Shown here: positions 3,315-41,622 of the stretch, in pieces
How the letters are laid out: the number at the start of each line of letters is the position of its first letter
How positions within the stretch are numbered: position 1 is the stretch's first letter
NCBI GenBank assembly: GCA_048938025.1
Contig: JBHLMP010000033.1
Coordinates: forward strand, 1-43,082
DNA: 43,082 nt
Source: Promethearchaeota archaeon
Lineage (GTDB): Archaea > Asgardarchaeota > Lokiarchaeia > Sigyniarchaeales > SOKP01
Direction: 5' to 3'
Made by a program: the position numbers and the translations under genes
The notes under the pieces: generated by a model
Databases searched by the model: none
Seen by the model: only the letters and a program-made list of their open reading frames with translations
What the model was told of the DNA's origin: nothing

Positions 3315-3920
3315 ATGTCAAATATCGCAATAATACTCATTATTTTGTTTATAACCATTGTTATGATTATTTTCAGTATGCTTCTTAATAAAATTTTAGG
3401 TTTAAAAAAAGAAGAAATAAAAAAAATCAGAGAACATGCAATAAATCTTCGAGAACGTATGAGAAATGCTCAAGCTTTAGGAGATGCTCAATTATTGATA
3501 CAGATACAAAGAGAAACTATGCAAATAACTAGTCAAATGATGAAAAAACAGTTAATACCAATGTGTTTAAGATGTTTTATTTTTATTGGAATTTTTGCAA
3601 CTCTCAGTTTTATACTCGCTGATTATGATAGCGGTTTATTACCATTTCCTCTTTGGATTTTTGGTAGTGGTTGGTTTGCTATATATTTCCTCTTTTCTAT
3701 CAGCTTTTCATTAATAATTATTGGTATAAAAATACTGTACAAAAGAGTTATTAAAAAAGAGACTAAATCCCAGAGTTATTTAAGAGAAATTATGGGGATT
3801 TTATCTCCTACCTCTAGATTCTCACTAGGAATTTCAGATTCTGCACAATCTCAAAGAACCAACCAGACATCATCTGAAGTAGAGGATTCTTGGAAAGATC
3901 GCATTAAAAATTCAAACTAA
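3315..3920 (+). CDS. DUF106 / EMC3-TMCO1 (Oxa1 superfamily) membrane insertase-like protein
   Basis: TM1, cytosolic coiled coil, MMKKQLIPM, TM2, LPF, GWFAIYFLFS pattern. Confidence 0.75.
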   Translation: MSNIAIILIILFITIVMIIFSMLLNKILGLKKEEIKKIREHAINLRERMRNAQALGDAQLLIQIQRETMQITSQMMKKQLIPMCLRCFIFIGIFATLSFILADYDSGLLPFPLWIFGSGWFAIYFLFSISFSLIIIGIKILYKRVIKKETKSQSYLREIMGILSPTSRFSLGISDSAQSQRTNQTSSEVEDSWKDRIKNSN

Positions 3921-5955: not shown

Positions 5956-6972
5956 TTATTTTTCACGCCACTGGAAACCACACTGACCACAGAGGTATTT
6001 TTTACCATACATTCTCGGATAGTCTAGAATTATATTAGATTTATCGATACTCTCGTGGATCATATGAGGGTCTTCGCAACCACACTCTGGACATTTTCTT
6101 CTTATTCCTTCCATCTTTTCAACAGTTATAATTGACTCATCAACTTTTCCTGGTATTCCCGGCGCAGCACTAGAGGCACTTGGTGGTTTAGGTGCAGAAG
6201 CAGCAGCTATATCTGCTTTTAATTCTTCTGGAGTGACATCTCTTATTTCTGCTTTACGTTCTGGTTTGATTTCAGCTACAGCTTTATCAGCTGCAGACTC
6301 AGGCTCTAGTACAGATTCAGCTCGTAATTGTACTGCATCAGATTCTTTGTAATCTATACCTCTTTCTAGAGCTGCCAAGAATTCAGCATCATCCCCTTCT
6401 TCATAAATAGTTTCATTTTGCAACCCAGCTCTATCTGCATCGATTTGTCTGGCCCATTGACCTGCTTTTACCCGTTCTTTCACATTGGAATCCCCTCCAT
6501 GCCAAATATATACTTTATTACCTAAATCAGCTAAAAAACAATCCTCTGATTCTAAAGAATCTTTAGAAAATGGAACTTGTATCATTTTCATGGTATTAAT
6601 ACCTTCAAATTCTTCAGCTGAGACGCGATATAAAACATTTTTCCATTCTGAAAAACCTGCCCAATCACCGGTGCTTACATCTTTTAATAAGGTTTTTGCT
6701 AGATTTTTTTCTACAATTTTCATTGCCCCCATCTGATTTACTATTTTCATAAATTCTGGGGTCTCTTGATTTTGATCTACCGTAATAATTTTAGCTGCTC
6801 CACCTCTTTCTTGATCTAATCTACGAGCTTGAGCTGCTCCCGCGGTTTTTTCGTCTACAGAACACTTGCCCCCGATCCAAACATAAATTGTACGTTCATC
6901 ATCTAAAAGGTATGTATCTCCCGTGGAAAACACTGGTTTTTTTACTTCTTTTAGTTCCCCTTTATCAATCAT
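5956..6972 (-). CDS. Two-domain gelsolin-like actin regulator with C-terminal zinc ribbon
   Basis: Gelsolin repeats FSTGDTYLLD...IYVWIGGKCS and LESEDCFLADLGNKVYIWHG; A/P-rich linker; CPECG...CGQCG. Confidence 0.88.
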   Translation of the reverse strand: MIDKGELKEVKKPVFSTGDTYLLDDERTIYVWIGGKCSVDEKTAGAAQARRLDQERGGAAKIITVDQNQETPEFMKIVNQMGAMKIVEKNLAKTLLKDVSTGDWAGFSEWKNVLYRVSAEEFEGINTMKMIQVPFSKDSLESEDCFLADLGNKVYIWHGGDSNVKERVKAGQWARQIDADRAGLQNETIYEEGDDAEFLAALERGIDYKESDAVQLRAESVLEPESAADKAVAEIKPERKAEIRDVTPEELKADIAAASAPKPPSASSAAPGIPGKVDESIITVEKMEGIRRKCPECGCEDPHMIHESIDKSNIILDYPRMYGKKYLCGQCGFQWREK

Positions 6973-10130: not shown

Positions 10131-12182
10131 TTACAATTCTTCATTTTCATTATTTTCGAAAAGTTCTGAATATGGCTCAAGAAAATTATTCTGACACATA
10201 GGACATGAATTATATTTAGAAAGCCAAAAAGCAACGCAAAGATAATGATATGTGCTAGCACAGAAAGGACAAGTGATAACTTGATCTCTTGCAAAGTTAA
10301 TAAAATTATGACATACTGTACACTGAATGTCTGATTGGGCAATTCCCTTTCTAATTTTAACTCTTGTAGATAAAATCTTTTCCAATTTTGATAATTCTAC
10401 CTGATAAAGACCTAATGAATGATTGAGTTGATTAATTTTTGAGTTAATTTCAACAATTCTTTCTTTTAACTCCTCTTCACTTAAATGTTCTGCTAAAAAG
10501 GATGATAAAGCAAAATTTAGTGGCAATTCTTCAAAATTTTCAGTTTGTTCAGAAATTTCAGTAATTGTCGCAAATAAAAGCCCTTCTTTTTCAATTAATT
10601 CTTTAAAACCTTTGAATAATTTATTTAATAATAACGAGATAAGAAATGCTAATTGTTGTCTTTTACGATTAAAATTATCCTCCCAAAGTTTGATGATTTG
10701 ATAAAGGTCAACATCATGTGATTTAACTGATTCTAACTTTTTATAAACCTCATCTTTGGCATTTTGGATTTTTTTATTACAATCACTTAAAATTTCTCTG
10801 ATATGTTTTAATTGGGGGAATTCCTCTTTTATTATTAGCGATGTCTGGTCCTCATATACTCTAATTAAATCATTCACTGCTGAAATTTTCTCAGTAATGA
10901 AATCTCTAATACCAACTCGTAATTCCTCATTCTTAACAGTTTCAATAAAACTTAAATATTCATTTTTTCTACGGAAAATCTCAGATGTAACATTTGAAAG
11001 AATTTTTTTTAATGAGTTTGTTATATTCTCATATGGTTTTAAATGAATTTCAAATCTTAATATCCAATCTTCAATATCATCGATTATCGAAGAAAAATTA
11101 TCAATCTTTCCATAATAGAAATTTGTTATTTCTTCAAATTCTTTTGATTGATTTACATCATTAATCTTTTCTTGAAATTTTTTCTCTATACCATTGATAA
11201 AAATTTCAACAATTTTAGGAAAAAAAATACCAATCTTCTGGTTTAAAAGCGATGCTACATTAGTCTTACTATCCTTTTCTGAGAGAAGAAATTCTTCAAC
11301 TTCATCAAGTACACTTTTCAATTTATCTGTAATTATACTTATAGCTAAAGGACGCACAAAATCTTTTAATTGTTTTATGACTTCTTTCCTTTCAAGAATA
11401 TTTATAAATTCTTCTCCCTCAAATTCTTCAAAAAGATTATTTTTATAGAGGAGGTAAATTAGATCTGAATAAGGCTTGATGTTTCCTTCATCTTTTGATA
11501 AATAATATTGGTACAATTCATCAAAATGGAATGATAAAATTCCTTCATCTTTATGTTTTTTTTCTTTTTTAGGAAAAACATCATTTAAACTCCTTACGAA
11601 TACATAAAGATCCTTAATTTCATTCCAGTTTTTAAAAGTATTCGGCAATTTATTTAATTTAAAGTTTAAATTTTTAATTCTATTTACCTCAATCCATAAA
11701 TAAATCTCATCATCATAGTTTGCTTCAATTTTTCTAATAGAATTTTTAAGAGTAGAATGTATCCTACTACTCTCATCGATAAGATGTTTTAAGTTTGATA
11801 ATGAATCTTCTAAAAATGATATTTTTTTAAATAATCTTTTAAGATTACGACTATTTGAATTTAAATTTTGTAGATTCTTTGAAATAAGATTTAGTTCTTC
11901 AACAATTTTTGATTTTAAATGATAAAAATTAATATTACCATTTGATATTGTCTCCTCAGAATTTTGTAAAAGATCCAGAAAAACTTTCAATTCATGTAGG
12001 TAATTTGAATATGAGTCAAGAATTGGAGTTGAAAGTTGTAATTTTGATTTTATATATTCCTCTATTTCAGATTCTCCAGCATTTTTAGATTCAAAATTTG
12101 CTAACTTGTTTTTTATCTCTAATAATTCTTCTTTAGTAAACCCACTTATTTCCTTAGCAACATTATTGAAAAGATTCAACAT
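10131..12182 (-). CDS. Coiled-coil protein with C-terminal RING finger (putative E3 ligase)
   Basis: CTVC-x13-CPFC-x4-HYLC-xxxW-x6-CPMC. Confidence 0.82.
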   Translation of the reverse strand: MLNLFNNVAKEISGFTKEELLEIKNKLANFESKNAGESEIEEYIKSKLQLSTPILDSYSNYLHELKVFLDLLQNSEETISNGNINFYHLKSKIVEELNLISKNLQNLNSNSRNLKRLFKKISFLEDSLSNLKHLIDESSRIHSTLKNSIRKIEANYDDEIYLWIEVNRIKNLNFKLNKLPNTFKNWNEIKDLYVFVRSLNDVFPKKEKKHKDEGILSFHFDELYQYYLSKDEGNIKPYSDLIYLLYKNNLFEEFEGEEFINILERKEVIKQLKDFVRPLAISIITDKLKSVLDEVEEFLLSEKDSKTNVASLLNQKIGIFFPKIVEIFINGIEKKFQEKINDVNQSKEFEEITNFYYGKIDNFSSIIDDIEDWILRFEIHLKPYENITNSLKKILSNVTSEIFRRKNEYLSFIETVKNEELRVGIRDFITEKISAVNDLIRVYEDQTSLIIKEEFPQLKHIREILSDCNKKIQNAKDEVYKKLESVKSHDVDLYQIIKLWEDNFNRKRQQLAFLISLLLNKLFKGFKELIEKEGLLFATITEISEQTENFEELPLNFALSSFLAEHLSEEELKERIVEINSKINQLNHSLGLYQVELSKLEKILSTRVKIRKGIAQSDIQCTVCHNFINFARDQVITCPFCASTYHYLCVAFWLSKYNSCPMCQNNFLEPYSELFENNENEEL

Positions 12183-14119: not shown

Positions 14120-16009
14120 TTAACTTTTTTTAATCATCCTTTTTTTAATCGCTAAAGCAATGGCAACACCTAAAGTAGCTACCATCAACACTAATATGTA
14201 ACCTGAAATTACAGGAGAACCTGGTTTTTCGAGTCCCCCATCTATAATTGTCCAAGAAAAGTTAGTAATGATAAATTGTCTTGCATCCGAAGCTACACTG
14301 CTATATTTTGAATTACCTGCATTAAATGTTACACCGAATTGTAAGGTTAATTGCGACCAACCTAATAATAAATTATCATAATTAAACGTCGACAGTTTAA
14401 CTGCATAGAACATATTATTCATTGCTGTCACGCTCGAGACATTCCAATTTCCAAGGGGTTGGTCAAATGAAGAAGCACTATAGAACATATAGCTCATAGA
14501 TGTTACACTCGAAACATCCCAATTACCGAGAGACTGATTGAATGAAGAAGCACCAGAGAACATATAACCCATATATGTTACGCTCGAGACATCCCAATTA
14601 CCGATAGGCTGATTAAATGAAGAAGCCCCCCAAAACATCATACCCATTTCTGTCACGCTCGAGACATCCCAATTGCTTATAGGTTGGTTGAACGAAGAAG
14701 CATCCCTAAACATCCTACCCATAAATATCACGCTTGAGACATCCCAGTTGCCGATGGGTTGATTGAATGAAGAGGCACTATCAAACATCATAGACATATC
14801 TATTATGCTCGAGACGTTCCAATTGCCAATGGGCTGGTTGAATAAAGAAGCCCCATAGAACATCTCATAAATGTACATCACACTCGAGACATCCCAATTG
14901 CTAATGGGCTGGTTGAATGAAGAAGCCCCCCTAAACATCTCTCTCATATCTACTACGCTCGAGACATCCCAATTGCTAATAAGCTGGTTGAAAGAGGAAG
15001 CCTCATAGAACATCCTATCCATATATGACACACTCGAGACATCCCAATTACCGATGGGCTGATTAAATGAAGAAGCCCCCTCGAACATCCCTGCCATATC
15101 TACTACACTCGAGACATCCCAATTGCTAATGGGCTGGTTGAAAGAGGAAGCCTCATGGAACATCCTTCTCATATTTACCACGCTCGAGACATCCCAATTG
15201 CCGATGGGTTGGTTGAACGAAGAAGCTCCATAGAACATCTCATAAATGTACATCACACTCGAGACATCCCAATTACCAATGGGCTGGTTGAAAGAGGAAG
15301 CCTCATGGAACATCCCAACCATGGTCGTCACGCTCGAGACATCCCAGCCATTCATATTACCACTACTACCAAGATTTTCGCAACCTACAAAAGCATCAGA
15401 TAAATTAGTCGTACCTGTTAAATTCAAATTATCAGTAGCCGTGAGTTTTAAATTGAAACACCCGGAAAAATAAGCTCCTGAATCTCCTAATCGTAGGCAA
15501 CCCCATTGTTGGATTTCAAGTATCTTCAATCGATCTCCAACATTATTAAACCGCCAGCCTATGATGGTTCCTGTGATATTAATGGTGTACACTCCTTCGG
15601 AAGCATAGGTATGGGTAACGGCAGCATGATTCCAGATCGTGATCGTGTCATTACTCTCGTCGCCCCAATCCACAAAAAAGTTATAATTTCCACCCGATTG
15701 CAGTGGTAAACGTATTTGATTGCTACTGGTTGAACCCGGCTCGGTCGTGTTCCAGACTGAGATAAACACATTTGGATCTGATGCGACTGGATATTTGCTA
15801 TTAGAAACGAAACTTGTCTCCTCCGTTTCCCAACGCGACGTAAAATCGTTCGGATCTGATGCAATAGATGATAAAAATTCCATACTGGTGAATGTTTGCT
15901 TTTGTCCATAAAAAGGGGATGTAAAGGTCGAAATGTTTACTAATACTAAAGATAATACTACAAAAACTGCATCTAACTTTACTACTTTATTTTTTATCAA
16001 TCTAATCAC
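14120..16009 (-). CDS. DUF285/BspA-like LRR surface protein with signal peptide, PKD-like domain and C-terminal sorting anchor (Loki-CTERM-like)
   Basis: N-terminal hydrophobic segment; VDWGD...[15 protein letters not shown]; 13 x [25 protein letters not shown]; ISGY+TM+KKR tail. Confidence 0.9.
14393..15367 (-). repeat. 13 x 75-bp (25-aa) coding tandem repeat
   Basis: CTCGAGACATCCCAATT core recurs every 75 bp. Confidence 0.95.
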
Positions 16010-24269: not shown

Positions 24270-25310
24270 ATGAAAAATCCGTTTAATCGCTTTTATCACG
24301 TGCCAAACTCCCAGGAATTATTAGATATAGCCTTTAAAAGAGGGATGAAAAGCTCTGCTCAAGTCTCAAAAAATGCTCCTATACTAATTAAGGCAAAAAA
24401 AAAAGAATCAAAGCGTATAAAGGTTACAATTGAGGATTTAATTGACAGGATTCTTAATATAATAAAAATGGTTCCAATTATGGACGATCTTCCAGATTTT
24501 TACAGAGAATTAGCTTCACTTTTAGTTAATACAAATAATTTAAAATTAGCATTAGGTAAATTAAATGGAATTTTACCTGTTCTAAGGCAAATTGAAAGAG
24601 AGTATACCAGTAAATTAAGCAAAATCGAAATACCTAAAGAAGGAGATCAATTGCGAAGAGCTGCTTTTGGAAGAATATCTTCAATTATTAATAAACAAAA
24701 CAAAAATCTTATTTATTTGAATAGCATAAGAGGAAACTTAAGAGAAATTCCTTCAATTGATCCCACTTCACCTTGTGTTGTTTTTGCAGGATATCCTAAT
24801 GTAGGAAAAAGTAGTCTTGTAAAAAATATTTCTACTAATAAAAAAATTGAAGTTCAAGAATACCCGTTTACTACAAAAAAATTAATATTAGGCCATTTAG
24901 AAATTAAAAGAAAATTTGATCAAATTAAATTGCAATGCTTAGATACTCCAGGAATTTTGGATCGTCCAATGACATTAAGGAATAATATTGAATTACAAGC
25001 AATTTTGGCATTAAGATTGATCTCTGATTTTATAATCTTTGTTTTTGATCCTACTCCTGCGTGTGGTTATTCAATTAATTCTCAAATAGAATTGTATTAT
25101 GAAATTAAATCTAATTTCACTAGAGATGGAAAAGTAAATCTTCTAATAGTAATAAATAAAATAGATTTAGCAAGTCCTTCAGAAATAGAATATTTAAAGA
25201 AAGAGTTACAATTACAGGAAGAGGACTATTTTTTAACTAATGCTTTAACAGGAGAAAATCTTGATCAACTAATAACTTATTTAAAAAATAGATACACTGA
25301 TACGAATTGA
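24270..25310 (+). CDS. NOG1-family GTPase
   Basis: GYPNVGKSS, YPFTT, DTPGILDRP, RNNIE, NKID. Confidence 0.92.
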   Translation: MKNPFNRFYHVPNSQELLDIAFKRGMKSSAQVSKNAPILIKAKKKESKRIKVTIEDLIDRILNIIKMVPIMDDLPDFYRELASLLVNTNNLKLALGKLNGILPVLRQIEREYTSKLSKIEIPKEGDQLRRAAFGRISSIINKQNKNLIYLNSIRGNLREIPSIDPTSPCVVFAGYPNVGKSSLVKNISTNKKIEVQEYPFTTKKLILGHLEIKRKFDQIKLQCLDTPGILDRPMTLRNNIELQAILALRLISDFIIFVFDPTPACGYSINSQIELYYEIKSNFTRDGKVNLLIVINKIDLASPSEIEYLKKELQLQEEDYFLTNALTGENLDQLITYLKNRYTDTN

Positions 25311-27169: not shown

Positions 27170-27739
27170 TTGAACCTAAATTATATTTATAATAATTTTC
27201 AAAATCGATTTGTATTAATTAGTGATATTAAAATGAATGAAAAAGAAAATGAAATGAAAAAGAATGCTGAATTTCTTATTAAGACGTTAAGGGATATGGA
27301 TATTCCTGGTAGCGCAAGATTTAAATGTAGATACAATAAAATGGTTAATTTTGCTAAAATCTACGGGATTTCAGATCCAAAATATGTTGGACCCGAAGAA
27401 GAAGGGATTATCGCATGTCATGGGTATGCAAATTCATTCGCAGTAAATGCCTTCTATATCCTTGTGCCAGGTATAAAAATGACACAAAATGGAGAAGAAC
27501 GCCCCATGGTTTTGAACCCAAATAAATTACTTCATGCTGGAAATAAATATAATTGGGAAGGATGTGTTGATATTAAAAATGGAGATAAATTAACGTCAAC
27601 AGGTAAGATATCCAAGGTGTGGTTAGTTGAACAAAATATGATTTTGTTTGCTGAATTATTATTGACTGTCAAAAACCAAAATGATGAATTGGTGTGCAAA
27701 GTTATATCTAGCGCAGCAATCAGACCTGGAGGTTATTAA
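27170..27739 (+). CDS. MaoC/hotdog dehydratase, HadA-like subunit
   Basis: FA..G..DP.Y, LLHAG..Y; likely start at ATG 27233. Confidence 0.72.
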   Translation: MNLNYIYNNFQNRFVLISDIKMNEKENEMKKNAEFLIKTLRDMDIPGSARFKCRYNKMVNFAKIYGISDPKYVGPEEEGIIACHGYANSFAVNAFYILVPGIKMTQNGEERPMVLNPNKLLHAGNKYNWEGCVDIKNGDKLTSTGKISKVWLVEQNMILFAELLLTVKNQNDELVCKVISSAAIRPGGY

Positions 27740-27742
27740 AAA

Positions 27743-28291
27743 ATGGTAAAAATATCAGATTTAAATGTTGGACAAGTTATAAAAAATGAATTTAGTGGCA
27801 TTACACGAGATTTATTAAAACAATATGCTAAAGCTAGCGGAGATACAAACCCTATTCATACAAATGATGCTATTGCCGAGAGAGCTGGACTCAAAGGAGT
27901 GATTGCTCATGGATTATTTTCATTTGGCTTTATTACTAAATTATTTGAAGATTTTCTAGAACAAGGTAAATATGGGAAGATAAATGAGATAGGAGTTGAG
28001 ATGCGCGCAATGGTTCGGTGCGGTGACAGACTTATAACTAATGCTAATATTACTAAAATTGAAGGAAAAAAGGTTTATTTTGACGTAGAACAAACAACTA
28101 TTACTAACGTTGATATTAAAGATAACAATGGAAATTTAGTAAAAAAATTTGAAGCAGGAGAACGTGGATATATTTCAGAAAAGGATATTGCTCGAGGGTT
28201 TGTTAAAACCAAAGAAGTTGAAGAAGGAATTCTAACATATAGAGAAAGAGTAGCAACACCAGGAACAGCAGTTGTTGAGTTATTTGAATAA
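27743..28291 (+). CDS. MaoC-family (R)-hydratase/dehydratase, catalytic HadB-like subunit
   Basis: Hydratase-2 motif YAKASGDTNPIH...IAHG. Confidence 0.87.
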   Translation: MVKISDLNVGQVIKNEFSGITRDLLKQYAKASGDTNPIHTNDAIAERAGLKGVIAHGLFSFGFITKLFEDFLEQGKYGKINEIGVEMRAMVRCGDRLITNANITKIEGKKVYFDVEQTTITNVDIKDNNGNLVKKFEAGERGYISEKDIARGFVKTKEVEEGILTYRERVATPGTAVVELFE

Positions 28292-32951: not shown

Positions 32952-33980
32952 ATGAAAAAAGAGCCAGAATATAGATTAACAAAGGCTGTCAAAATCTTTG
33001 GATGATCCTGTAAAATGAGTTCTAATGATTTAGTGGATCTACTAAAGAAAACGGGTTTGAGTGGAGAATTTGAAGATGCTGCGATAATACCAATTCCTAA
33101 ATCTGATATGGTAATGGTTAAAAATATCGATATTTTTACTCCTATTGTTGACGAACCAGAAATTATGGGAGAAATCGCTGCTTGTAACGTCACTAATGAT
33201 GTGTATGCGATGAATGTTCCTGAAATTTCTGGAATGTTAGTTTTCTTAGGAATAAACACTAATACTCCTATGGAAATTGCTGAAGGATTACTTAAAGGAA
33301 TAAGCAATTTTATACACAAAAAAATATATTCCAAAGTTGTAGGTGGTCATACAATATACAGTGAATGGCCCTTAATAGGAGGTACTGCCACTGGATTTGT
33401 TGAAAGAAATGCTATTATACATAAATATGGAGTAAAGAGAGGAGATAATCTTATATTGACAAAACCAATAGGATTACAACCTGTAATGGCTGCCTATAGG
33501 TTACTAAAGGATATTCCTGAAATGTTAGAAAGTTATTCTGAAAAGCAACTTAGGAAATCAATTAAACTTGCTATTAAGATTATGACTACATCAAATCAGA
33601 ATGTTGTAAAAACAATTCACTCATATAAAGATTTTTCATTTATCCATGCGATGACTGATGTGACTGGATTTGGTCTTGCTGGTCATTTATTAGAAATGCT
33701 TCAAAATTCTAATTTATCTGCGGTTATTGAAACTATTCCATCAATAAAACTTTCAGAACGTTTATCTATTGATTTAGGTTATGCTTTCGATGAATGTAAA
33801 TGTTCTGAGACTGCGGGTGGTATGCTAATGGCTGTTGATCCACATTATACTGAAGAATTTTCTAATACTCTTTCTAGCAATGGTATTTCGAATTGGATTG
33901 TAGGAAAAATAGATACAGTTGCTCCTGGGCTAGTTAGGATTTCACAAAATATTGAAAATATTGAAATTTCTAAATATTAA
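32952..33980 (+). CDS. selD: Selenophosphate synthetase paralogue, selenoprotein (UGA=Sec at 33003-33005)
   Basis: GAGGTGA RBS, MKKEPEYRLTKAVKIFG-U-SCKM in frame with ORF 33015; same SelD motifs; SECIS downstream. Confidence 0.93.
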
Positions 33981-34052
33981 TGATGTTGATGAAATAGGCT
34001 GAAACACAATTAGTGGTTGCTTATTGAGAGTTCCACATGCAAAGTGGCATCA
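33981..34052 (+). ncRNA. Eukaryote-type SECIS element of selD2
   Basis: TGATG/CATCA; AUGA 33989; AATAGGC/GCTTATT; AAA; CAC/GTG; GA 34026; CCAC-AT-GCAA-A-GTGG hairpin. Confidence 0.88.
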
Positions 34053-34064
34053 AATTTAATATTA

Positions 34065-34856
34065 TCATCTTTCTTTTATTTTACCTTTGAGTTTGAGAAC
34101 TATTTCTCTTAGTTCATTTAAGACTTTATCGACCAACTCCTCTCCATTCTCTATATTAAAAGCAGTAATTGACACCTCAACTTCAACTGATAAACCAATC
34201 CTTGGATGTGTTTTAATCCAAAGTTGAGGATATTTTTCTTCTAACTTATTCGTGTAAGCTGCAATTTGACTTTCTCCAATTCCAGAAAAAAGAAAACCTT
34301 TTTCTATAAATTTTCCTTTCTTCTGTTTTAAAATTGGGGTTATCACATTCCTAAACATTGCTTTCATTTCCGCAGGTACGCCAGGAAATATATAAATAAC
34401 TGTATTTTCTTCAGTAATCTTAACTCCAGGAGCTGTACCTACGGTGTTAGGTAAAGGAGTGGAACCCTGAGGGAGATAAGCCATTTTTTCCCTCTCTTTC
34501 GTCATCCCTTCAAGTTTTAACAGTCCTTTTTCATAAGCTCTATCGTAGGTTCTCTTAATAGATTTATATGCATATTGGTTCAACTCTAATTCTCTATTTA
34601 AACCTTTTGCGATTCCAGTTAAAGTCATATCGTCAAAAGTAGGTCCTATACCTCCTGTAGTTATAATTATATCTGGTTTACGTTTTAAAATATCTTGCAA
34701 TGTACTTGATATGATATTTACTTCATCCCCTATTGTTGTTATTCTTTTAATTTTATGACCAAATTTAGTAATCCTTTTCGCCATCCAATTAGAATTTGTG
34801 TCCTGGGTTTTTCCTATGAGGATTTCATTCCCTATCATTAGAAGTTCAATATTCAT
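34065..34856 (-). CDS. CinA-like molybdopterin-binding-domain protein
   Basis: IGNEILIG..QDTN, TTGGIGPTFDDMT, GTAPG, PGVPAEM. Confidence 0.88.
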   Translation of the reverse strand: MNIELLMIGNEILIGKTQDTNSNWMAKRITKFGHKIKRITTIGDEVNIISSTLQDILKRKPDIIITTGGIGPTFDDMTLTGIAKGLNRELELNQYAYKSIKRTYDRAYEKGLLKLEGMTKEREKMAYLPQGSTPLPNTVGTAPGVKITEENTVIYIFPGVPAEMKAMFRNVITPILKQKKGKFIEKGFLFSGIGESQIAAYTNKLEEKYPQLWIKTHPRIGLSVEVEVSITAFNIENGEELVDKVLNELREIVLKLKGKIKER

Positions 34857-35003
34857 AAATTTATCACAACAGAAAGACCTAAATCTAAATCATGAAATCA
34901 TACTACAAACATCATTTTTCATTCATCGAGGGTTAATTTATAAAATTTGATATTATATAAATCTTTTATACAATTAAATAAAGGAGACTGACAGACTTTA
35001 GTA

Positions 35004-35570
35004 ATGACTATAGAAATAGATGACTCTGGGACGGGAGATCTAGTAGGAGATGCTTTTATAGGTTTTCTAAGAAAAGAAACTGGGGAAATACTTTTAAAAA
35101 CTTTGTCTTTTGAATTATTTAAAGGAGATAATTGGAAAAACAAACTACCTTTTAAAATTGTAGTTGACTTAGTTAAAGAAGGGCTGAAAGAATTAAAGTT
35201 CAATAAAAACAACGAAATGATAAAAATTTGTAGGGGAAATATTTTTGATCAAGTAAGAGCTTATTTCATAGAAGAGGGAATAAATTATGAAAATTCTATA
35301 ATAGAAGGAAAATTACAGGATGCTGTAGAAAATAAATTTATTACTCATCTTAGAAATGACTTAGGAGTTAGATCTAGAAATTTAACAACTAAAAGTGGAG
35401 CAAAAAGATTTTTTATTCTATTTAATTGGGTTTGTTATGATTTTTTTAACAGAGAAAAATATGTAAAGTCAGGTTTTAAGAAATGGAATACAGTATGGAG
35501 AGATCGAGCTATTGAAAAAAATAAAAAAATAAGAAATTCACAATATAGAATTAGCTCTAAATCGAAGTAG
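35004..35570 (+). CDS. Conserved archaeal protein with RNase H-like N-terminal motif
   Basis: IEIDDSGTGDLVG resembles RNase HII GxDExGxG; CRGNIF. Confidence 0.65.
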   Translation: MTIEIDDSGTGDLVGDAFIGFLRKETGEILLKTLSFELFKGDNWKNKLPFKIVVDLVKEGLKELKFNKNNEMIKICRGNIFDQVRAYFIEEGINYENSIIEGKLQDAVENKFITHLRNDLGVRSRNLTTKSGAKRFFILFNWVCYDFFNREKYVKSGFKKWNTVWRDRAIEKNKKIRNSQYRISSKSK

Positions 35571-35726
35571 AATTATTGAATTTAGGGACTATCACTTTTT
35601 AAGATTCAATAGCTTTTATATAACAATATTTAAATACTGGGATTTGATAATTAATAGTGATCAATAATTATCAGTTAATAATTTGTATCGTTGAAGAAAA
35701 AATAAAGTGGTGAATCTCCAATTAGC

Positions 35727-38054
35727 ATGCGAAATATGGAGTCTCCGCCTTCTAAAAAAAAATTTATCGGAGCTCTAATATTATTAGCTCTTGGGTTTGC
35801 TTTGATACCGACTGGTTTTCTGCTTAATGATTTTATTCAAACTGAAATTGATAAAGGTATTGCAAATGAAATTCGAATACCTGAACCAGATGACTCAAGT
35901 TATGATGAGTGGATATCAAATGATTATCCAAGTGCCATTCCTATGTACAGAAAATTTTATATGTGGAATTTAACTAATCCTAATGAGTTTCTTATGGGAA
36001 AGAAACCAGAGCTTGAAGAAGTTGGTCCTTATACTTTCCGGGAATATACAACAAAATATAATGTGAGTTATAGTGCCAAAATGGATGAGGTAACCTATAA
36101 ACAATACCCAACATATATATTTCAGCCTGATATGTCTGCTCCCTTATGTTCTCTTGATGATAATATTATAAACGTAAATCCTGCTTATTTAGGAGTTCTG
36201 GAATTAGCGGGAAATGAGGAAAATCTAATTAAAGCCATGTTTCCAACTGTTCTTTCAGAAGTAAAAACCCTATTTGGAGAAGAATTAACTGTAACTTTAG
36301 GAGAACTTTTAACTAATGATGGAATTTATAACATGCTCGTAGGGGCTTTGTCTGACATACTTAGCGATTTATTTTCTGGACTTCTTGGTGATGAGGCTAC
36401 AAACCTAACTGCTACATGGATAGTTGATTTTCTTACTACATACATCGTACCGTTAGAAGATCTGGTAGAATTTATGGATGATGCAATGCCTAGTGCTGAA
36501 GCAATTTTCTTTGCGGAATGGGCAAATGATTATTTTCCTGAAGTTCAAGTGGATTTATCTATTTTATTTAGACATATATTAGAAGTAATAAGCGATCTTG
36601 TTGATTTTATTATTGATCTCATTTTCTTTTGGGATGTTTTACACTTATTTGATGCTATTAAGGATGCTCTGCATGAAGAACTTATGAACATGTTTGAAGA
36701 GTTATTTACTGAATCTCCACTAGCAGAGTTAATTGGAGGACTCTTTGCTGATTTGATCCGAAGCCTGGGTGCTAAAATGGTTGATGAGGAAGGTAGCGAA
36801 ACGGGTGAAGGAGTTGATCTGGATGGTCGAGAACCCTATAATTTCCCAGGCCCAAGTTCTGATTTGAATATCATTAATCGTAGTGAAGCTGGTGAGTCTG
36901 GAGTCACTCAGGAGCAATGTCAGGCTCTTTGGGATCAGAACAACCCAAACTCACTTCTTGGTATGGATGTACAGGTTAATCCAATATGGTTTGAAGCATT
37001 AGCAGGAATTGAAGAAAGTAAAATATTCTTAATGAATGCATTTTGTTTAAATGAAACTCAACTAGATTTAATTTTGAATTGGATTGATACGAGTTTAAAT
37101 GGATGGCTCAAAAATATCTGTGAATATTCGATAAAAGATTGGAATAGCGGTTTACTTACTACTCGTACTGTCGAAGAATGGCTCTTCACAGCTGTGGATA
37201 ATTTAGTAAATATCCAAGATCCGAACGAAGCTAAAGTAGGAATTTTTGACAATTGTTTTTCTGAAGCTGAAGCAGAAGCTAAGGGTATGAAAAATTTCAC
37301 TATAAATACAGGTAAATATGATATTAATAAAGTCTGCGATACTGTTAAATATAACGGTGAGACAGTTATTGCTGTTTGGGAAGAAGATGAAATTGTTCGA
37401 GGTACAGCGGGTACTCAATTTGCCCCGAGGGTTTCAAAAAATAACCCTCTTTATGTTTTCATTACTGATTTATTAAGAACAGTAGAGATTATCTATACTG
37501 AAACTACGAGTATTTACGATATTGAATTATATAGGTTCGAAATATCAGAGGAGACCTTTAAAGTTAATCCAAAATACTACCAATCAATTGAAGGGGTAGC
37601 TAACATGACAGTTGATCAAGGAATTCCTGCTTTCTTAAGTAAACCTCATTTTCTTAATGCAAGTAGCTATATGAAAGAGGCTGTAAATGGTTTAAATCCC
37701 AATAAGCTACAACATGATACTTATCTTGATATTGAACCTTTAACGGGCGCTACAATGAATGCGGCTGAAAGAATACAAATTAATTTTTTGGTTAATCAAA
37801 CTGATATATGGTATAAAAATTGCTGGGAAGGCATAATGCCTATTCTTTGGCTTGAATTTGGTGGACAAATAACAGAAAATCTAGCAAATAAATTCAAAAA
37901 TTTGGTTTATACCGCTCAAAATCTAAGTGAAAATCTATTTTATAGCTGTATTGGTATTGGGGCTACCCTCATTATTCCTGGTGCGATTTTTACAACAACA
38001 CAGAATAGAAAGCGATTAAACGTTAAAAAACAAAAATTATCACAAACTGTTTAA
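35727..38054 (+). CDS. CD36/SCARB (LIMP-2/SR-B) family membrane protein with large helical insertion
   Basis: N- and C-terminal TMs; FYMWNLTNP.E...G.KP.LEEVGPYTFRE; NTG..DI; GT.GTQF.P; LSKPHFL; GL.P...H.TYLDIEPLTG....A..RIQIN. Confidence 0.88.
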   Translation: MRNMESPPSKKKFIGALILLALGFALIPTGFLLNDFIQTEIDKGIANEIRIPEPDDSSYDEWISNDYPSAIPMYRKFYMWNLTNPNEFLMGKKPELEEVGPYTFREYTTKYNVSYSAKMDEVTYKQYPTYIFQPDMSAPLCSLDDNIINVNPAYLGVLELAGNEENLIKAMFPTVLSEVKTLFGEELTVTLGELLTNDGIYNMLVGALSDILSDLFSGLLGDEATNLTATWIVDFLTTYIVPLEDLVEFMDDAMPSAEAIFFAEWANDYFPEVQVDLSILFRHILEVISDLVDFIIDLIFFWDVLHLFDAIKDALHEELMNMFEELFTESPLAELIGGLFADLIRSLGAKMVDEEGSETGEGVDLDGREPYNFPGPSSDLNIINRSEAGESGVTQEQCQALWDQNNPNSLLGMDVQVNPIWFEALAGIEESKIFLMNAFCLNETQLDLILNWIDTSLNGWLKNICEYSIKDWNSGLLTTRTVEEWLFTAVDNLVNIQDPNEAKVGIFDNCFSEAEAEAKGMKNFTINTGKYDINKVCDTVKYNGETVIAVWEEDEIVRGTAGTQFAPRVSKNNPLYVFITDLLRTVEIIYTETTSIYDIELYRFEISEETFKVNPKYYQSIEGVANMTVDQGIPAFLSKPHFLNASSYMKEAVNGLNPNKLQHDTYLDIEPLTGATMNAAERIQINFLVNQTDIWYKNCWEGIMPILWLEFGGQITENLANKFKNLVYTAQNLSENLFYSCIGIGATLIIPGAIFTTTQNRKRLNVKKQKLSQTV

Positions 38055-38153
38055 TCATATTTATATTCCATCTAACAAAGATTAATATATAGATGTTGTT
38101 TTTGAAAGGTAATGAAATATAACTGAACAATTCTTAATAGGTGTATAGTTCTT

Positions 38154-38849
38154 ACGGCTAATAAAAAAAATGCTATTGATCATGAATTTGTAATTTTAGA
38201 ATGCATTAGGGATAACCCTGGAGGAGTTACAGCTTCAGATATAGCTAAAATTACAAAATTCTCAAGAAATACTGTTTCTAAATATGTTCTAAGCCTTGAG
38301 GTTACAAATCAAATATTTAGTAAAAAAATTGGTGCTTACAAGTTATATTTTGCAGTGGAAAAGAGGTATATTCCGTCCGAAACCGCTATTTCATACTACA
38401 AAGCACTTTTATCAAAAATTAAAAAATATTTCCCAGATGAAGAGGAATTGGCAAAAAAAATAGGAAGAGAGGCGGTAAAAGATATAAAATTTACGTTTGG
38501 ACCCAGCATTTATAAACAATTAAAAAGCATAAAAGATCATCCCATTTCAAGAATACATTTAGAAAGTTTCAAGAGCTTTTACTCTGCTTATGATATTTTT
38601 CAACCCAATATTGATATTTCAATTTTAAAAATAGATCCCGAAGGTAAAAAAGCAACTTATAGATTTAAAAATTCTGTCTTTTTAGAAAATTCAGATGACT
38701 ACATATACCATATTCATATTATGTGTGGAATTAGTGAGGGAATTCTTAATAGAGTATTAAAAACAGAAGTATCATGTGAAATTGAGCAAATTTTTATTTC
38801 TGATGATAAAGAGGAATCTTTTTTTGATGTTACCATTAAAATAAAATAA
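38154..38849 (+). CDS. wHTH regulator with V4R/HNOB-like C-terminal domain; apparent non-AUG (ACG) start
   Basis: 67 codons upstream of the GTG at 38355 are open and encode ILECIRDNPGGVTASDIAKITKFSRNTVSKYVLSLE...KKIGAYKLY. Confidence 0.75.
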   Translation, partial: TANKKNAIDHEFVILECIRDNPGGVTASDIAKITKFSRNTVSKYVLSLEVTNQIFSKKIGAYKLYFAVEKRYIPSETAISYYKALLSKIKKYFPDEEELAKKIGREAVKDIKFTFGPSIYKQLKSIKDHPISRIHLESFKSFYSAYDIFQPNIDISILKIDPEGKKATYRFKNSVFLENSDDYIYHIHIMCGISEGILNRVLKTEVSCEIEQIFISDDKEESFFDVTIKIK

Positions 38850-38887
38850 ATTTTCAGTAAGATGAAAATTAAACGATATTTTTAATA

Positions 38888-39568
38888 TTACTTTATAGTT
38901 GTACCACAATCTGGACAAATTTTTGTTTTAGCTGGTAATTCAGCACCACATGCAAAGCAAATTACTTTATTACTATCTTTAGGTTGTTCAAGTTCAATTT
39001 TACCTTGATTTTGAGTTTGGCTATTTTCTCCTTTTTTTGGTGTAAAAATACTCATATCAATATCCTTTTTTAAGACTTTTTTCACATAGTTATTATCATG
39101 GGGAGTAATTATTTTAAAATCCTTTTTAGTTTGAATTTCTTTAAACCCATTAGGGATATTCTTGAGTTCAGAATCTTCGATAAATTTCACATCCTTTGAT
39201 TCAATTGCGTTGCTTTCCTTCTCGTCATCAGTTAAAAAATCTTCACTATAAGATTCTTCAGAACTTACAGCATCAATTGTTTCTTGATCTGGAGTCTCCT
39301 CTACTCTAGGTTCAATCTCCTCACCTGATACATCCTCTATGATTTTTCCTGATTTTAGATTTTTTATATGTTGAACTAATCCTTCAGTTTTCTTGATAAG
39401 CATATTTTTAAAAGTAAAATCTAAATTTCGGGATTTTGAAAATCTGAGAGTCATTTCAGATATCTCTACCCATACTTTTATAGCAGCAGTTATCTCATTA
39501 CTTTTTTCAAGACTCTTTGCTAATGCTATTTTAGTACCAAGCTCTTTATTAAATTTCGCAATATCCAT
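38888..39568 (-). CDS. MIT-like N-terminal domain, acidic linker, C-terminal zinc ribbon
   Basis: IALAKSLEKSNEITAAIKVW...KTEGLVQHIKNLK; CFACG...CPDCG. Confidence 0.7.
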   Translation of the reverse strand: MDIAKFNKELGTKIALAKSLEKSNEITAAIKVWVEISEMTLRFSKSRNLDFTFKNMLIKKTEGLVQHIKNLKSGKIIEDVSGEEIEPRVEETPDQETIDAVSSEESYSEDFLTDDEKESNAIESKDVKFIEDSELKNIPNGFKEIQTKKDFKIITPHDNNYVKKVLKKDIDMSIFTPKKGENSQTQNQGKIELEQPKDSNKVICFACGAELPAKTKICPDCGTTIK

Positions 39569-39726
39569 TATGGAATCTCTCTTTTATTCTATAAAACACA
39601 AAATTAACAAATAAATTCTTCTTATTAAATCTTTATCTGATTATAATACAAAAATTCAAATTTAAAATCCCTATTAGATTATTAAGAATACTTTCTAACC
39701 ATACTAAAATGTCTAGATACTATTAA

Positions 39727-41622
39727 TTGATTATGTCAATAAGACCATTTTCTTCAAATGAAATACAAAAATTAATGGAATTTATTCAAAAAAATGGATG
39801 GAATCTAGAAGGTATTATTGAAAACTTCTTCCGATACAGTCTAAAGAAAAAGAAATTAGTTTTATTCACTATAAAATTTCCAGTCACTTTACCCTTAAGG
39901 ATTAACGTTCCATTTGAAATTGTTAGTTTTCGTATTTCTCTTGCGTTCCAATTATGGGATTTAAATCAATATATTTATAACACAATTCTTTATTTAATGA
40001 AAGCATTAAGGAATCTAACTTTATCCTTGACTATGGAACATAAATTTCCAATTGAGGGAAAACAACAACAAGTTATAGATTTATTAAATTTAATCTTACC
40101 TGAACTAATAACTAATGAAAATGAGAATACATGGCTAAACCGAATTCGGATCTCATTAATGAGTAAAAGAGATCAATTAAAAGATTTTAAACCTGATAAA
40201 TATAAGAGTTTAGTTGAAATTTTAAGAAATTTAGGATTAGAACCTACTTTCAAGCAGCCTTGGGAATTAAGAAAGGGTGTTCCTAAAATTAGAACATCTG
40301 AGACTTTATTTTTTTCAAATGAAGAAGATTTTGATGAATTTTTTATATTGGAAAAGGGATATTATACTTATTTTAAAGATATTGCATATAATAAATTCTA
40401 TATAAGAAGTGCTTTTGATAGTTATACACCTTATATTTTAAATGATTTATTTAATGATATTCCTGATTTCAAATTAGAATTGTTTATTGAAAATTGGATC
40501 AAATTTTCTAGAATAATTCTCAATTCTATATTAGAAATTCTATCACAGGGAAATTTAAATCAACATGAATTTATACAATTCAGGCCTGAGAAAGAATTGA
40601 TTGATAATATTGAAAATTTTATTTCAGAACAGAACAATTTTCCATTTTCTGCCTTACGCTATGAAGGCTTTATAGCAAAAGAGGTATTTCCTATTCATAC
40701 TGACTTATTAAATAAACCTCCTACTAATTTTGAAGTAATAGAAACCATGAATCATTATACAGCAGCAGAGGAATTAATAAAAAACTATCGATTTGAAGAA
40801 GCTGCTAATATTCTCAATGAATCTCTTAAAGTTTTTAATAAAAATCAACAAAAAAAGATTGTTGTTTCAATCTTGTTGAAATTAAGAAAAATAGCAATTC
40901 TATTAGATCAAAGAGATGCAGCTCTCAATTATTTACAAAATGCTCTTGGAGTTGCTAAATCAGGAGAAGTCCCTATAGAATATATAATTAAAATCCACTA
41001 TAAATTAGGAAAAACACATTATAGAAGGAAGGATTTTGAAAAATCTTTAAATCATTTTAAAATTATAATTAATTTCTTGAAAAGTGAAGATGTCACTCTA
41101 AATAAAGAAGAATATATAGGTATGTCCTATCTTTATATTGGATTAATTAATTCAGAGCAAAATAATATTGTTGAATCCAAAACTAACTTTAAAAAAGTAA
41201 TAGAATTGAGTCATAAATCAAATAAAATTAAATTAAAATATTACCTCCTTCGTGCAATTCAATTAAAGAACAGAAAAAATTTATCTCAAGCTCAAAAATT
41301 ATTGAGAGTCGCTATTAACGATGTTGGATTTGATTTTGGTGATGATAGTTATCGGAATATTTTAATAGACCTAATTCTTGAATTAGCTGAATTTTATATT
41401 CATTATAGAAAAGATTCAAAAAAGGCATTCTATTTGTTGAATAAAATGCAAAATCATCTTTCTTTTAAGGAAGTAAACAATATACGTAGATCAGTTCGCT
41501 GGAACTTGTTAATGAGTGATTATTATAATATTATTGCTAAGGACAGCAAAAATTCTCAATTTTATATAAAACAGAGCCAGAAACTTAAAGCTCAATTAAG
41601 AACAATAGGAATAATAGAATAA
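39727..41622 (+). CDS. Protein with C-terminal TPR repeats
   Basis: HYKLGKTHYRRKDFEKSLNHF, SYLYIGLI TPR patterns; start likely ATG 39733. Confidence 0.78.
   Translation: MIMSIRPFSSNEIQKLMEFIQKNGWNLEGIIENFFRYSLKKKKLVLFTIKFPVTLPLRINVPFEIVSFRISLAFQLWDLNQYIYNTILYLMKALRNLTLSLTMEHKFPIEGKQQQVIDLLNLILPELITNENENTWLNRIRISLMSKRDQLKDFKPDKYKSLVEILRNLGLEPTFKQPWELRKGVPKIRTSETLFFSNEEDFDEFFILEKGYYTYFKDIAYNKFYIRSAFDSYTPYILNDLFNDIPDFKLELFIENWIKFSRIILNSILEILSQGNLNQHEFIQFRPEKELIDNIENFISEQNNFPFSALRYEGFIAKEVFPIHTDLLNKPPTNFEVIETMNHYTAAEELIKNYRFEEAANILNESLKVFNKNQQKKIVVSILLKLRKIAILLDQRDAALNYLQNALGVAKSGEVPIEYIIKIHYKLGKTHYRRKDFEKSLNHFKIIINFLKSEDVTLNKEEYIGMSYLYIGLINSEQNNIVESKTNFKKVIELSHKSNKIKLKYYLLRAIQLKNRKNLSQAQKLLRVAINDVGFDFGDDSYRNILIDLILELAEFYIHYRKDSKKAFYLLNKMQNHLSFKEVNNIRRSVRWNLLMSDYYNIIAKDSKNSQFYIKQSQKLKAQLRTIGIIE

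Follow-up and report, generated by a model that had tools for sequence, protein, structure and literature searches.

Members of the CD36 or class B scavenger receptor (SR-B) family are lipid-uptake, lysosomal and phagocytic receptors of eukaryotes, and in the members that have been studied binding and lipid transfer go together. The subject of this article is a gene for such a receptor in an archaeon. The window, i.e. the whole stretch of DNA that was analysed, is a complete 43-kb contig (43,082 nucleotides; JBHLMP010000033.1 of assembly GCA_048938025.1) from an Asgard archaeon (Promethearchaeota, Loki-type family), and the gene occupies positions 35727..38054 of its forward strand. By sequence, topology and fold the gene product is a bona fide member of the CD36/class B scavenger receptor family, and the gene is native to the Asgard genome. 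A large insertion at the apex of the protein ends in a conserved module of ~65 amino acids (aa); sequence comparison shows it to be homologous to part of the apex insert that the long forms of CD36 carry in amoebae and other protists.

One broad evolutionary survey of the family, the only one that we found (PMC10715195), treats it across Eukarya alone and makes no mention of archaea or prokaryotes. It describes the Dictyostelium protein LmpA as carrying a 'lineage-specific apex expansion', and places the apex expansions of eukaryotic members between helices alpha4 and alpha5, calling them independent in origin. Judged by title, and among the matches listed, the literature on the Pfam family PF01130 is all eukaryotic. 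No main-text description of CD36-family proteins in Asgard archaea was found in the literature, of which supplements may list more; the main texts of PMC12962969 and of two other papers on Asgard eukaryotic signature proteins (ESPs) and lipid transfer are without the terms CD36, LIMP, SCARB or scavenger. The supplementary table of PMC12962969 does hold three relevant rows: Loki__YT1_007__03483 (cog.006344) and Loki__YT1_065__00280 (cog.010189), both with SCARB1 as best match and both tagged 'ESP' and 'Liu et al, 2021', and HeKa__M3_38_Bin_305__00427, with CD36 as best match and tagged 'iESP'. The metagenome-assembled genome (MAG) YT1_007 is the record of one of the loci compared below (L039), and its protein P0010 is 70% identical to the window protein. 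The presence of the family in Asgard archaea is catalogued but not analysed, and its existence alone is not new.

Family membership, fold and topology

The gene is intact, a single open reading frame (ORF) with an ATG start that encodes 775 aa. A Pfam search matches PF01130 (CD36) with an E-value of 3.2e-99 and a score of 333 bits (cut-off 26.5); the match is made up of two stretches, which cover profile positions 3-188 and 142-460 of 463. The best PDB sequences retrieved with phmmer are LIMP-2 (4q4b, 4.8e-44) and CD36 (5lgd, 2.8e-40); query residues 38-143 pair with chain residues 6-106 and residues 449-730 with chain residues 116-408, and the gap in the alignment between query residues 143 and 449 means that some 300 residues are extra at one point. 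The core is accordingly divided into an N-terminal part (residues 38-155; 35838..36191, forward strand), which corresponds to LIMP-2 chain residues 6-106 and Pfam profile positions 3-188, and a C-terminal part (residues 449-736; 37071..37934, forward strand), which corresponds to chain residues 116-408. The landmark INVNPAYL (residues 148-155) closes the first part, and the second contains both LLTTRTVEEWLF (residues 476-487) and the SKPHFL motif (S638-L643), which is invariant across the 18 sequences of the family alignment (alignment A1).

The predicted structure agrees with the sequence. An AlphaFold2 model (ma1f150bdac46) built on 18 relatives (alignment A1) has a mean predicted local distance difference test score (pLDDT) of 77.1 and a predicted TM-score (pTM) of 0.61. 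A Foldseek search with this model places LIMP-2 and CD36 on top with E-values from 7e-23 to 8.8e-22 and target-normalised TM-scores of 0.73-0.77, the best match combining 7e-23 with 0.76. Superposition with VIA-align gives a Z-score of 31.1 for LIMP-2 (4q4f_A; 342 of 394 residues at 30% identity, with a root mean square deviation (rmsd) of 3.2 A) and of 29.7 for CD36 (5lgd_A; 363 of 400 residues); the leading scores of 31.1, 30.8, 30.7, 29.9 and 29.7 come from LIMP-2/SCARB2 in four cases and from CD36 in one. Among unrelated families LmcA follows, at a Z-score of 10.3, and a wide structural search of 48,161 representative chains leaves the ranking unchanged. The initial annotation, made from the letters and their translations, had called the protein a CD36/SCARB homologue, and both the sequence and the predicted fold bear this out. 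In the ESM Atlas the protein meets generic CD36 clusters only.

Hydropathy (Kyte-Doolittle, sliding window of 19, threshold 1.6) calls two transmembrane (TM) segments, one at either end. The N-terminal helix (residues 11-37; 35757..35837, forward strand) follows a lysine-rich tail, while the C-terminal helix (residues 737-756; 37935..37994, forward strand) is succeeded by a tail rich in lysine and arginine; the tails are basic by composition, with net charges of +3 and +6. Together with the alignment to PDB sequences, these segments uphold the earlier description of collinear CD36 motifs framed by two terminal TM helices. A third hydrophobic stretch (residues 283-305) contains several aspartates and is amphipathic rather than membrane-spanning. 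The protein is thus predicted to be a membrane hairpin with short basic cytoplasmic tails and an outward-facing ectodomain that has the CD36 beta-barrel as its core.

Between the two parts of the core lies the insert (residues 156-448; 36192..37070, forward strand), delimited by composition, model and profile placement. It is 293 aa long, has 56 aspartates and glutamates against 9 lysines and arginines (net -47), and 46% of it consists of the residues ILVFMWA. It is kept in 17 relatives in the alignment and so is not a product of chance. The region within it that we refer to as the 'EWAN' motif (FAEWANDYFPEV, residues 262-273; 36510..36545, forward strand) has W265, A266 and D268 invariant across the 18 aligned sequences. 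In the model the insert is almost wholly helical: a stack of helices runs from H164-194 through to H331-356 (pLDDT 65-86), and a loop leads on to a last helical part that includes helix H395-457 and is the better predicted one (residues 391-460, pLDDT 83-94). The earlier description of an acidic, hydrophobic and helical insertion of roughly 300 aa was therefore accurate. In structure searches with the whole model, including that of the 48,161 chains, the insert matched nothing beyond generic helices, which is no sign of a novel fold, and a profile of the insert found no match below an E-value of 0.096 among PDB sequences.

The apex module in Asgard archaea and protists

An exhaustive search of representative sequences yielded 3609 matches at E <= 0.001, and the best 150 include many proteins of 720-870 aa, here called long forms. 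By cluster look-ups, four of these bear the name of a eukaryote and come from the amoebozoans Luapeleamoeba hula (P0061, P0103) and Endostelium zonatum (P0069) and from an MMETSP transcript (P0062); short forms are named from Cavostelium, Planoprotostelium, Diphylleia and animals. A homologue search that started from the Luapeleamoeba protein yielded only three proteins. In an alignment of all sequences to a core profile derived from 57 short forms, the inserts all come after one match state (157), be it the 293 aa of the window protein or the 272-292 aa of the four named eukaryotic long forms; in the window protein, the residues on either side of the site pair with LIMP-2 chain residues 106 and 116. 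The initial annotation had located the insert at the apex; the LIMP-2 alignment, the shared match state and the position of eukaryotic expansions given in the survey (PMC10715195) all place it there.

The likeness extends from position to sequence. When 21 Asgard inserts are set against 25 long-form ones with hhalign, the probability is 98.3% and the E-value 1.2e-14 over 70 columns; the reversed control reaches an E-value of 0.7. The aligned region is a conserved module of ~65 aa at residues ~387-455 (36885..37091, forward strand), delimited by hhalign, hidden Markov model (HMM) and structural model, with the pattern SG[IV]T..QC.ALWD..NPNSL...W..A...L...F.L..TQL..IL.W. In a database of 140 sequences, a 64-column HMM built from Asgard sequences only detects all four named eukaryotic long forms (P0062 at 3.6e-10, P0103 at 4.3e-7, P0061 at 1.9e-4 and P0069 at 8.5e-4), as well as CD36 proteins of a second, Heimdall-type Asgard group (9e-10 to 1e-3), and no short-form protein better than an E-value of 1.3. 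The reciprocal HMM, built from 13 eukaryotic instances alone, matches residues 387-448 of the window protein with an independent E-value (iE) of 4e-13; it matches 23 of the 25 long-form rows, 13 of them by construction, and none of the 59 short-form rows at iE < 0.01. Homology of the module with the apex insert of amoebal and protist long forms is the conclusion that this sequence evidence supports. The initial annotation had presented the insert as a peculiarity to be set against the apical helices of animal members. This needs revision, in that part of the insert has homologues both in protist long forms and in stand-alone Asgard proteins. The shared module also argues against an independent origin of apex expansions, at least for the amoebozoan type compared with the Asgard type; LmpA itself lies outside this comparison.

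The stand-alone proteins are encoded by the same genome. Positions 234-311 of the insert profile match four further ORFs, at C62:5462-7510 (+), C20:7246-10347 (-), C72:1-966 (+) and C3:1-1650 (-), and when the eukaryote-built HMM is run against all 5052 ORFs of at least 80 aa in the genome, the five matches at E <= 0.01 are the CD36 protein and these four. Each of the four combines two to three module copies with numerous N-x-S/T sequons and, at the C-terminal end, a TM helix followed by a basic tail; C20 and C62, whose N-termini are intact, have an N-terminal TM helix as well, and none of the four belongs to a Pfam family. In a BLASTP comparison, the window protein and a stand-alone protein from a sister genome match collinearly at three places: the module itself (46% identity, E 2e-8), the N-terminal TM region (residues 9-41, 45% identity, E 4e-5) and, weakly, the 'EWAN' region against 'EQWANG' helices (E 0.003; iE 0.019-0.11 with hmmsearch). 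Across the phylum, 84 of 400 genomes have a match to the insert profile, 78 of them among the 134 sister genomes of family f1, which is well beyond the CD36-positive genomes. Among the matches listed, with 45 further ones in existence, those outside CD36-positive genomes cover the module only. The module hence appears autonomous, being repeated in predicted two-TM surface proteins without a detectable CD36 core, and by their sequences the four ORFs make up an undescribed family of Asgard surface-protein repeats.

Native context, distribution and descent

The window genome comprises 3.52 Mb in 88 contigs and is 96.7% complete with 5.1% contamination. That the gene could be a recent acquisition from a eukaryote, a eukaryotic contaminant fragment or the product of a chimeric contig is an idea to which its overall GC content of 0.341, above the contig mean of 0.296, lends some colour. 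The excess is confined to first codon positions, and GC at third positions (GC3) is 0.226 as compared with 0.202 +/- 0.052 for 34 genes of the contig, i.e. within 0.5 standard deviations (sd). The gene has no introns, its best eukaryotic matches are only 28-36% identical, and the tree discussed below sets the Asgard proteins apart with a support of 96/82. Relatives with 33-92% identity occur in 23 of 23 contig loci, found with Asgard-specific peptide patterns in a scan that bears on Asgard loci only; all are archaeal MAG records, titled Promethearchaeota, Promethearchaeia, 'Hod-', 'Hermod-', 'Odin-', 'Heimdallarchaeota' or plain 'archaeon'. The flanking genes are conserved in close relatives, and the same archaeal neighbours surround the gene at no fewer than nine other MAG loci (at least nine). 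Near-identical DNA is present in metagenome contigs from 20 runs of 14 studies, covering sediment, marsh, mangrove and seawater. A recent transfer, contaminant or chimera is effectively refuted and has hardly any probability left.

Of 400 genomes of the phylum, 29 have a match to PF01130 (28 above the cut-off). These represent 11 of 85 genera and include 9 of the 90 high-quality genomes; none of 14 control genomes has a match. With the window genome excluded, the counts by family code are 19/134 in f1, 1/1 in f12, 2/3 in f14, 4/12 in f15, 1/2 in f17 and 1/31 in f13, the single f13 match being the one below the cut-off. The initial annotation had put the protein forward as a candidate ESP; occurrence in 29 of 400 phylum genomes against 0 of 14 controls is compatible with that proposal, as are the SCARB1 and CD36 matches of Asgard proteins entered as ESPs in the PMC12962969 supplement. 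In genomes where both halves of the profile are matched they are always split by an insert, and the full-length CD36 genes of other families have inserts of ~390-1040 aa. The Heimdall-type proteins (loci L055-L058; P0046, P0049, P0053, P0054) measure 917-1648 aa and bear the module in inserts of this size. The large inserts of nine longer proteins of the Asgard clan contain no other Pfam domain; a PorA match in P0030 (E 3.2e-4) was dismissed because it is below the cut-off and sits in the C-terminal core rather than the insert. Two CD36 paralogues share a contig in several Asgard genomes, in tandem on G264:C33, 15 kb apart on G274:C4, and as L047 and L050 on SHMU01000004.1. As regards names, the NCBI record calls P0085, a Heimdallarchaeota fragment (517 aa, 61% of the core profile), a 'CD36 family protein', and full-length Loki-type relatives are carried as 'hypothetical protein'.

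Within f1 the CD36 tree requires six changes of genus label by a quick method, close to the minimum of five and far from the shuffled mean of 13.3; the window genome's genus falls into two clades, of which one has genus g12 as its sister. The f1 pattern is one of mostly vertical descent with many losses. For the family as a whole, a FastTree overview was made of 140 rows kept from those with a core-profile match; rows that cover less than 88% of this profile were left aside, as were six proteins with two domains in tandem, near-duplicates and isoforms from primates. A careful tree was then computed from 66 rows (22 each of Asgard type, long form and short form) and 463 columns under LG+C20 with posterior mean site frequencies (PMSF), and is unrooted. 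A clan of 12 named Asgard and 10 unnamed rows lies on one side of a branch supported at 96/82 and contains a Loki-type (100/100) and a Heimdall-type (98/98) subclade; the short forms lie on one side of a branch supported at 93/90, and the long-form rows fall in between. Long end branches are seen in 18 rows, and three joins of long branches were flagged. Nesting within a eukaryotic clade had been anticipated as the sign of horizontal transfer or contamination, and in this unrooted tree the Asgard proteins nest within no named eukaryotic lineage.

The unrooted tree is compatible with descent from Asgard archaea to eukaryotes as well as with an ancient transfer in the reverse direction; under any rooting, the module unites the Asgard and long-form proteins on sequence grounds. 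If the direction was reversed, an early eukaryote would have invented the long-form CD36, which passed to Asgard archaea by ancient horizontal transfer and then spread among them. In favour of this, the diversity and the spread of the family are far greater in eukaryotes, most of the 3609 representative matches not being Asgard-like, it is patchy within the phylum (29/400 genomes), and rooting on the short-form branch puts the Asgard clan among long-form eukaryotic rows. The existence of the two Asgard subclades, however, means that a single transfer must predate their split or be succeeded by inter-Asgard spread. Moreover, the module is at home in stand-alone Asgard proteins (78 of 134 genomes of the sister family), and in eukaryotes it has been seen only inside CD36, where no search of eukaryotic proteomes for stand-alone forms was made. 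We consider a eukaryotic origin of the long form unlikely.

The putatively regulated slot, proposed function and known relatives

Downstream of the CD36 gene, a 240-codon frame (38130..38849, forward strand) encodes a winged-helix regulator. Its DNA-binding domain matches HTH_24 with an E-value of 4.6e-5 (23.3 bits against a cut-off of 21.9), and a 160-aa domain of no Pfam family follows. A profile of the regulator family (A3) finds IclR (1mkm, 2.2e-5) among PDB sequences, over the winged helix-turn-helix (wHTH) part only. For the C-terminal domain the Atlas suggested V4R (PF02830; 0.93), a lead that Pfam hmmscan of nine members did not substantiate. The frame has no ATG, GTG or TTG before 38355 and the DNA-binding domain lies upstream of that position; at the site where the relatives at loci L034 and L036 start with ATG, the window and its two closest relatives (L032 and L033) have ACG, yet the frame is conserved and stays open. 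Non-canonical initiation or a lineage-specific start is thereby indicated. On the other side of the CD36 gene lies orf188 (35004..35570, forward strand; 188 aa, of no family), recognised by synteny as the upstream flank. NCBIfam has no family for the CD36 protein, the regulator or orf188.

The regulator family is present in 75 of 400 genomes, 73 of them among the 134 of f1. All 19 CD36-positive f1 genomes have it, and by hand count it shares a contig with CD36, at a distance of no more than ~4 kb, in 17 of them. Six regulator loci without adjacent CD36 were compared (L067-L072, in G186, G264, G260, G216, G271 and G238). In all six a stand-alone module-repeat gene divergently adjoins the regulator at a distance of 90-200 bp, and in G260 the slot holds two such genes in tandem. 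The proteins have 2-8 modules and 548-1564 aa, with a TM helix at both ends in five of the six. In five of the six, too, the flanks are those of the window itself (33015-41622), in the order AIRS, MoCF, orf188, slot, regulator, Zn-ribbon and TPR; orf188 stands beside the stand-alone module gene in five of six loci and beside CD36 in 9 of 23. The shared flanks imply that one slot is occupied by CD36 in some genomes and by a module-repeat protein, encoded on the opposite strand, in others, and this conserved arrangement suggests that both belong to one system as alternative proteins for surface contact.

As for the rest of the contig, it carries genes for a proteasome subunit and HEAT-repeat proteins alongside four that are eukaryote-like, encoding gelsolin-repeat, EMC3/TMCO1-like and RING-finger proteins and the NOG1 GTPase, at 5956-6972 (-), 3315-3920 (+), 10131-12182 (-) and 24270-25310 (+), a gene content that speaks for a native Asgard contig. 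A DUF285 repeat gene (14120-16009 (-); Pfam E 1.8e-179) is compositionally foreign, its GC3 being 0.419 against 0.202 for the contig (sd 0.052). A pair of FAS1-like/MaoC dehydratase genes of lipid metabolism (27170-28291 (+)) lies 7.4 kb upstream of CD36. Transfer RNA and Rfam scans of the window gave no matches, and a scan for bacterial-type promoters and terminators found sites no commoner than in shuffled sequence.

Taken together, the best explanation of the locus, to which we give a probability of about 0.6, runs as follows. By analogy with the family, the CD36 core would hold a hydrophobic tunnel, the apex domain would dock a hydrophobic or lipid-bearing ligand, be it a particle, a vesicle or the envelope of a partner cell, and lipids would move through the tunnel between ligand and membrane. 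Conserved linkage suggests that the slot is under the control of the neighbouring wHTH regulator; in sister genomes a module-repeat protein takes the place of CD36 there. The long form with its module would be older than the parting of Asgard archaea and eukaryotes, or than a transfer between them, and the short form of animal type would probably be a later reduction. The function is inferred to be lipid capture or transfer, surface contact, or both; the lipid scavenging or cell-cell contact proposed in the initial annotation is likewise a candidate role.

Several results weigh against this explanation. The distribution is patchy even within the genus of the window genome (7 of 53 genomes are CD36-positive) and needs many losses or transfers. 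The deep branches of the tree are short and moderately supported (82/88, 85/79), and only four of its 22 long-form rows bear a eukaryotic name, the rest being unnamed metagenome proteins. The acidic first ~200 aa of the insert appear essentially Asgard-specific, with no convincing eukaryotic counterpart; their best matches are at E-values of 0.0021 (P0063, unnamed) and 0.022 (P0061, a named eukaryote). No cysteine is invariant across the 18 Asgard-type sequences, so that the cysteines of the vertebrate disulfides are not conserved. The regulator is found in 54 of 115 CD36-negative f1 genomes as well and is therefore not dedicated to CD36. Two short contigs inside the gene from one metatranscriptome library, of 188 nt (3 differences) and 151 nt (2 differences), are a weak hint of expression at most, DNA carry-over being possible, and stretches of the gene without RNA cover carry no information.

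The protein could also be mainly an adhesin or contact receptor, with the core as a scaffold and the module binding a partner cell, S-layer or glycan without any passage of lipid. The occurrence of 2-8 modules in hairpin-anchored, sequon-rich proteins with no detectable CD36 core, and the replacement of CD36 by such proteins in the same regulated slot, speak for a role of this kind, as does the involvement of Dictyostelium CD36-family receptors in the uptake of bacteria reported in PMC11552500. A mere stalk, however, would not account for the strong conservation of the core across Asgard lineages, including SKPHFL and the 30% identity to LIMP-2 over 342 superposed residues. Binding and lipid transfer are, besides, coupled in the family members studied. 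We regard pure adhesion as the rather less probable account and retain the reading in which docking serves lipid transfer.

A further-reaching and tentative scenario, which we would on balance bet against, is that long-form CD36 arose in Asgard archaea beside or from the module-repeat glycoproteins and was inherited by the eukaryotic stem, the compact animal receptors being reductions without the apex; interchangeable regulated cassettes would then set what the surface binds and which lipids are taken from partners. In that scenario the locus would be a direct archaeal antecedent of the scavenger and phagocytic receptors of eukaryotes. The existence of a conserved, native Asgard clade that shares a module with amoebal long forms moves the history of the family to or before eukaryogenesis, and suggests that the 'expanded' apex is old rather than lineage-specific. 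It also provides a concrete and testable candidate for surface binding or lipid exchange by Asgard cells, which live close to partners, and one that is linked both with a regulator and with alternative surface proteins that form a family.

How the window protein compares with known systems can be stated at four levels. The published ESP catalogue entries (PMC12962969) concern the same family, but are table rows only and hold nothing on the apex domain, the stand-alone relatives or the regulator. Among structures, the sole non-CD36 entry above background is the cavity lipoprotein LmcA of Mycobacterium smegmatis (7N3V; 7n3v/7shw), with Z-scores of 10.0-10.3 over 229-230 residues and a Foldseek E-value of 1.7e-3; at 10% identity and an rmsd of 5.5-5.8 A, and with neither TM hairpin nor apex domain, it bears only a distant fold resemblance to the modelled protein. 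LmcA may be a distant bacterial relative of the CD36 fold.

The vertebrate class B scavenger receptors LIMP-2/SCARB2, CD36 and SR-BI (4F7B, 4Q4B, 4Q4F, 4TW0, 5LGD) match the Asgard protein collinearly from end to end, have the same two terminal TM helices with short tails and share the PHF motif and the ectodomain fold (Z 29.7-31.1, 335-364 residues superposed, ~30% identity). Where the vertebrate proteins have, at their apex, a bundle of three helices, the Asgard protein has an inserted acidic helical domain of 293 aa; it keeps none of their disulfides, and its host is an archaeon. The long-form protist SR-B proteins are the nearest eukaryotic neighbours in the tree and resemble it further in the size of the insert (272-292 versus 293 aa), its position in the profile and the presence of the homologous ~65-aa module. 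They differ in acidity (aspartate and glutamate make up 5-12% of their inserts versus 18% of the Asgard insert), lack a clear match to its first ~200 aa and carry the module in mid-insert, with a weak second copy after it (self-hhalign 53%, E 1.4e-4), whereas the Asgard module ends the insert. The Asgard member is ordinary in its core, and its apex domain is older and more widely shared than the initial annotation assumed.

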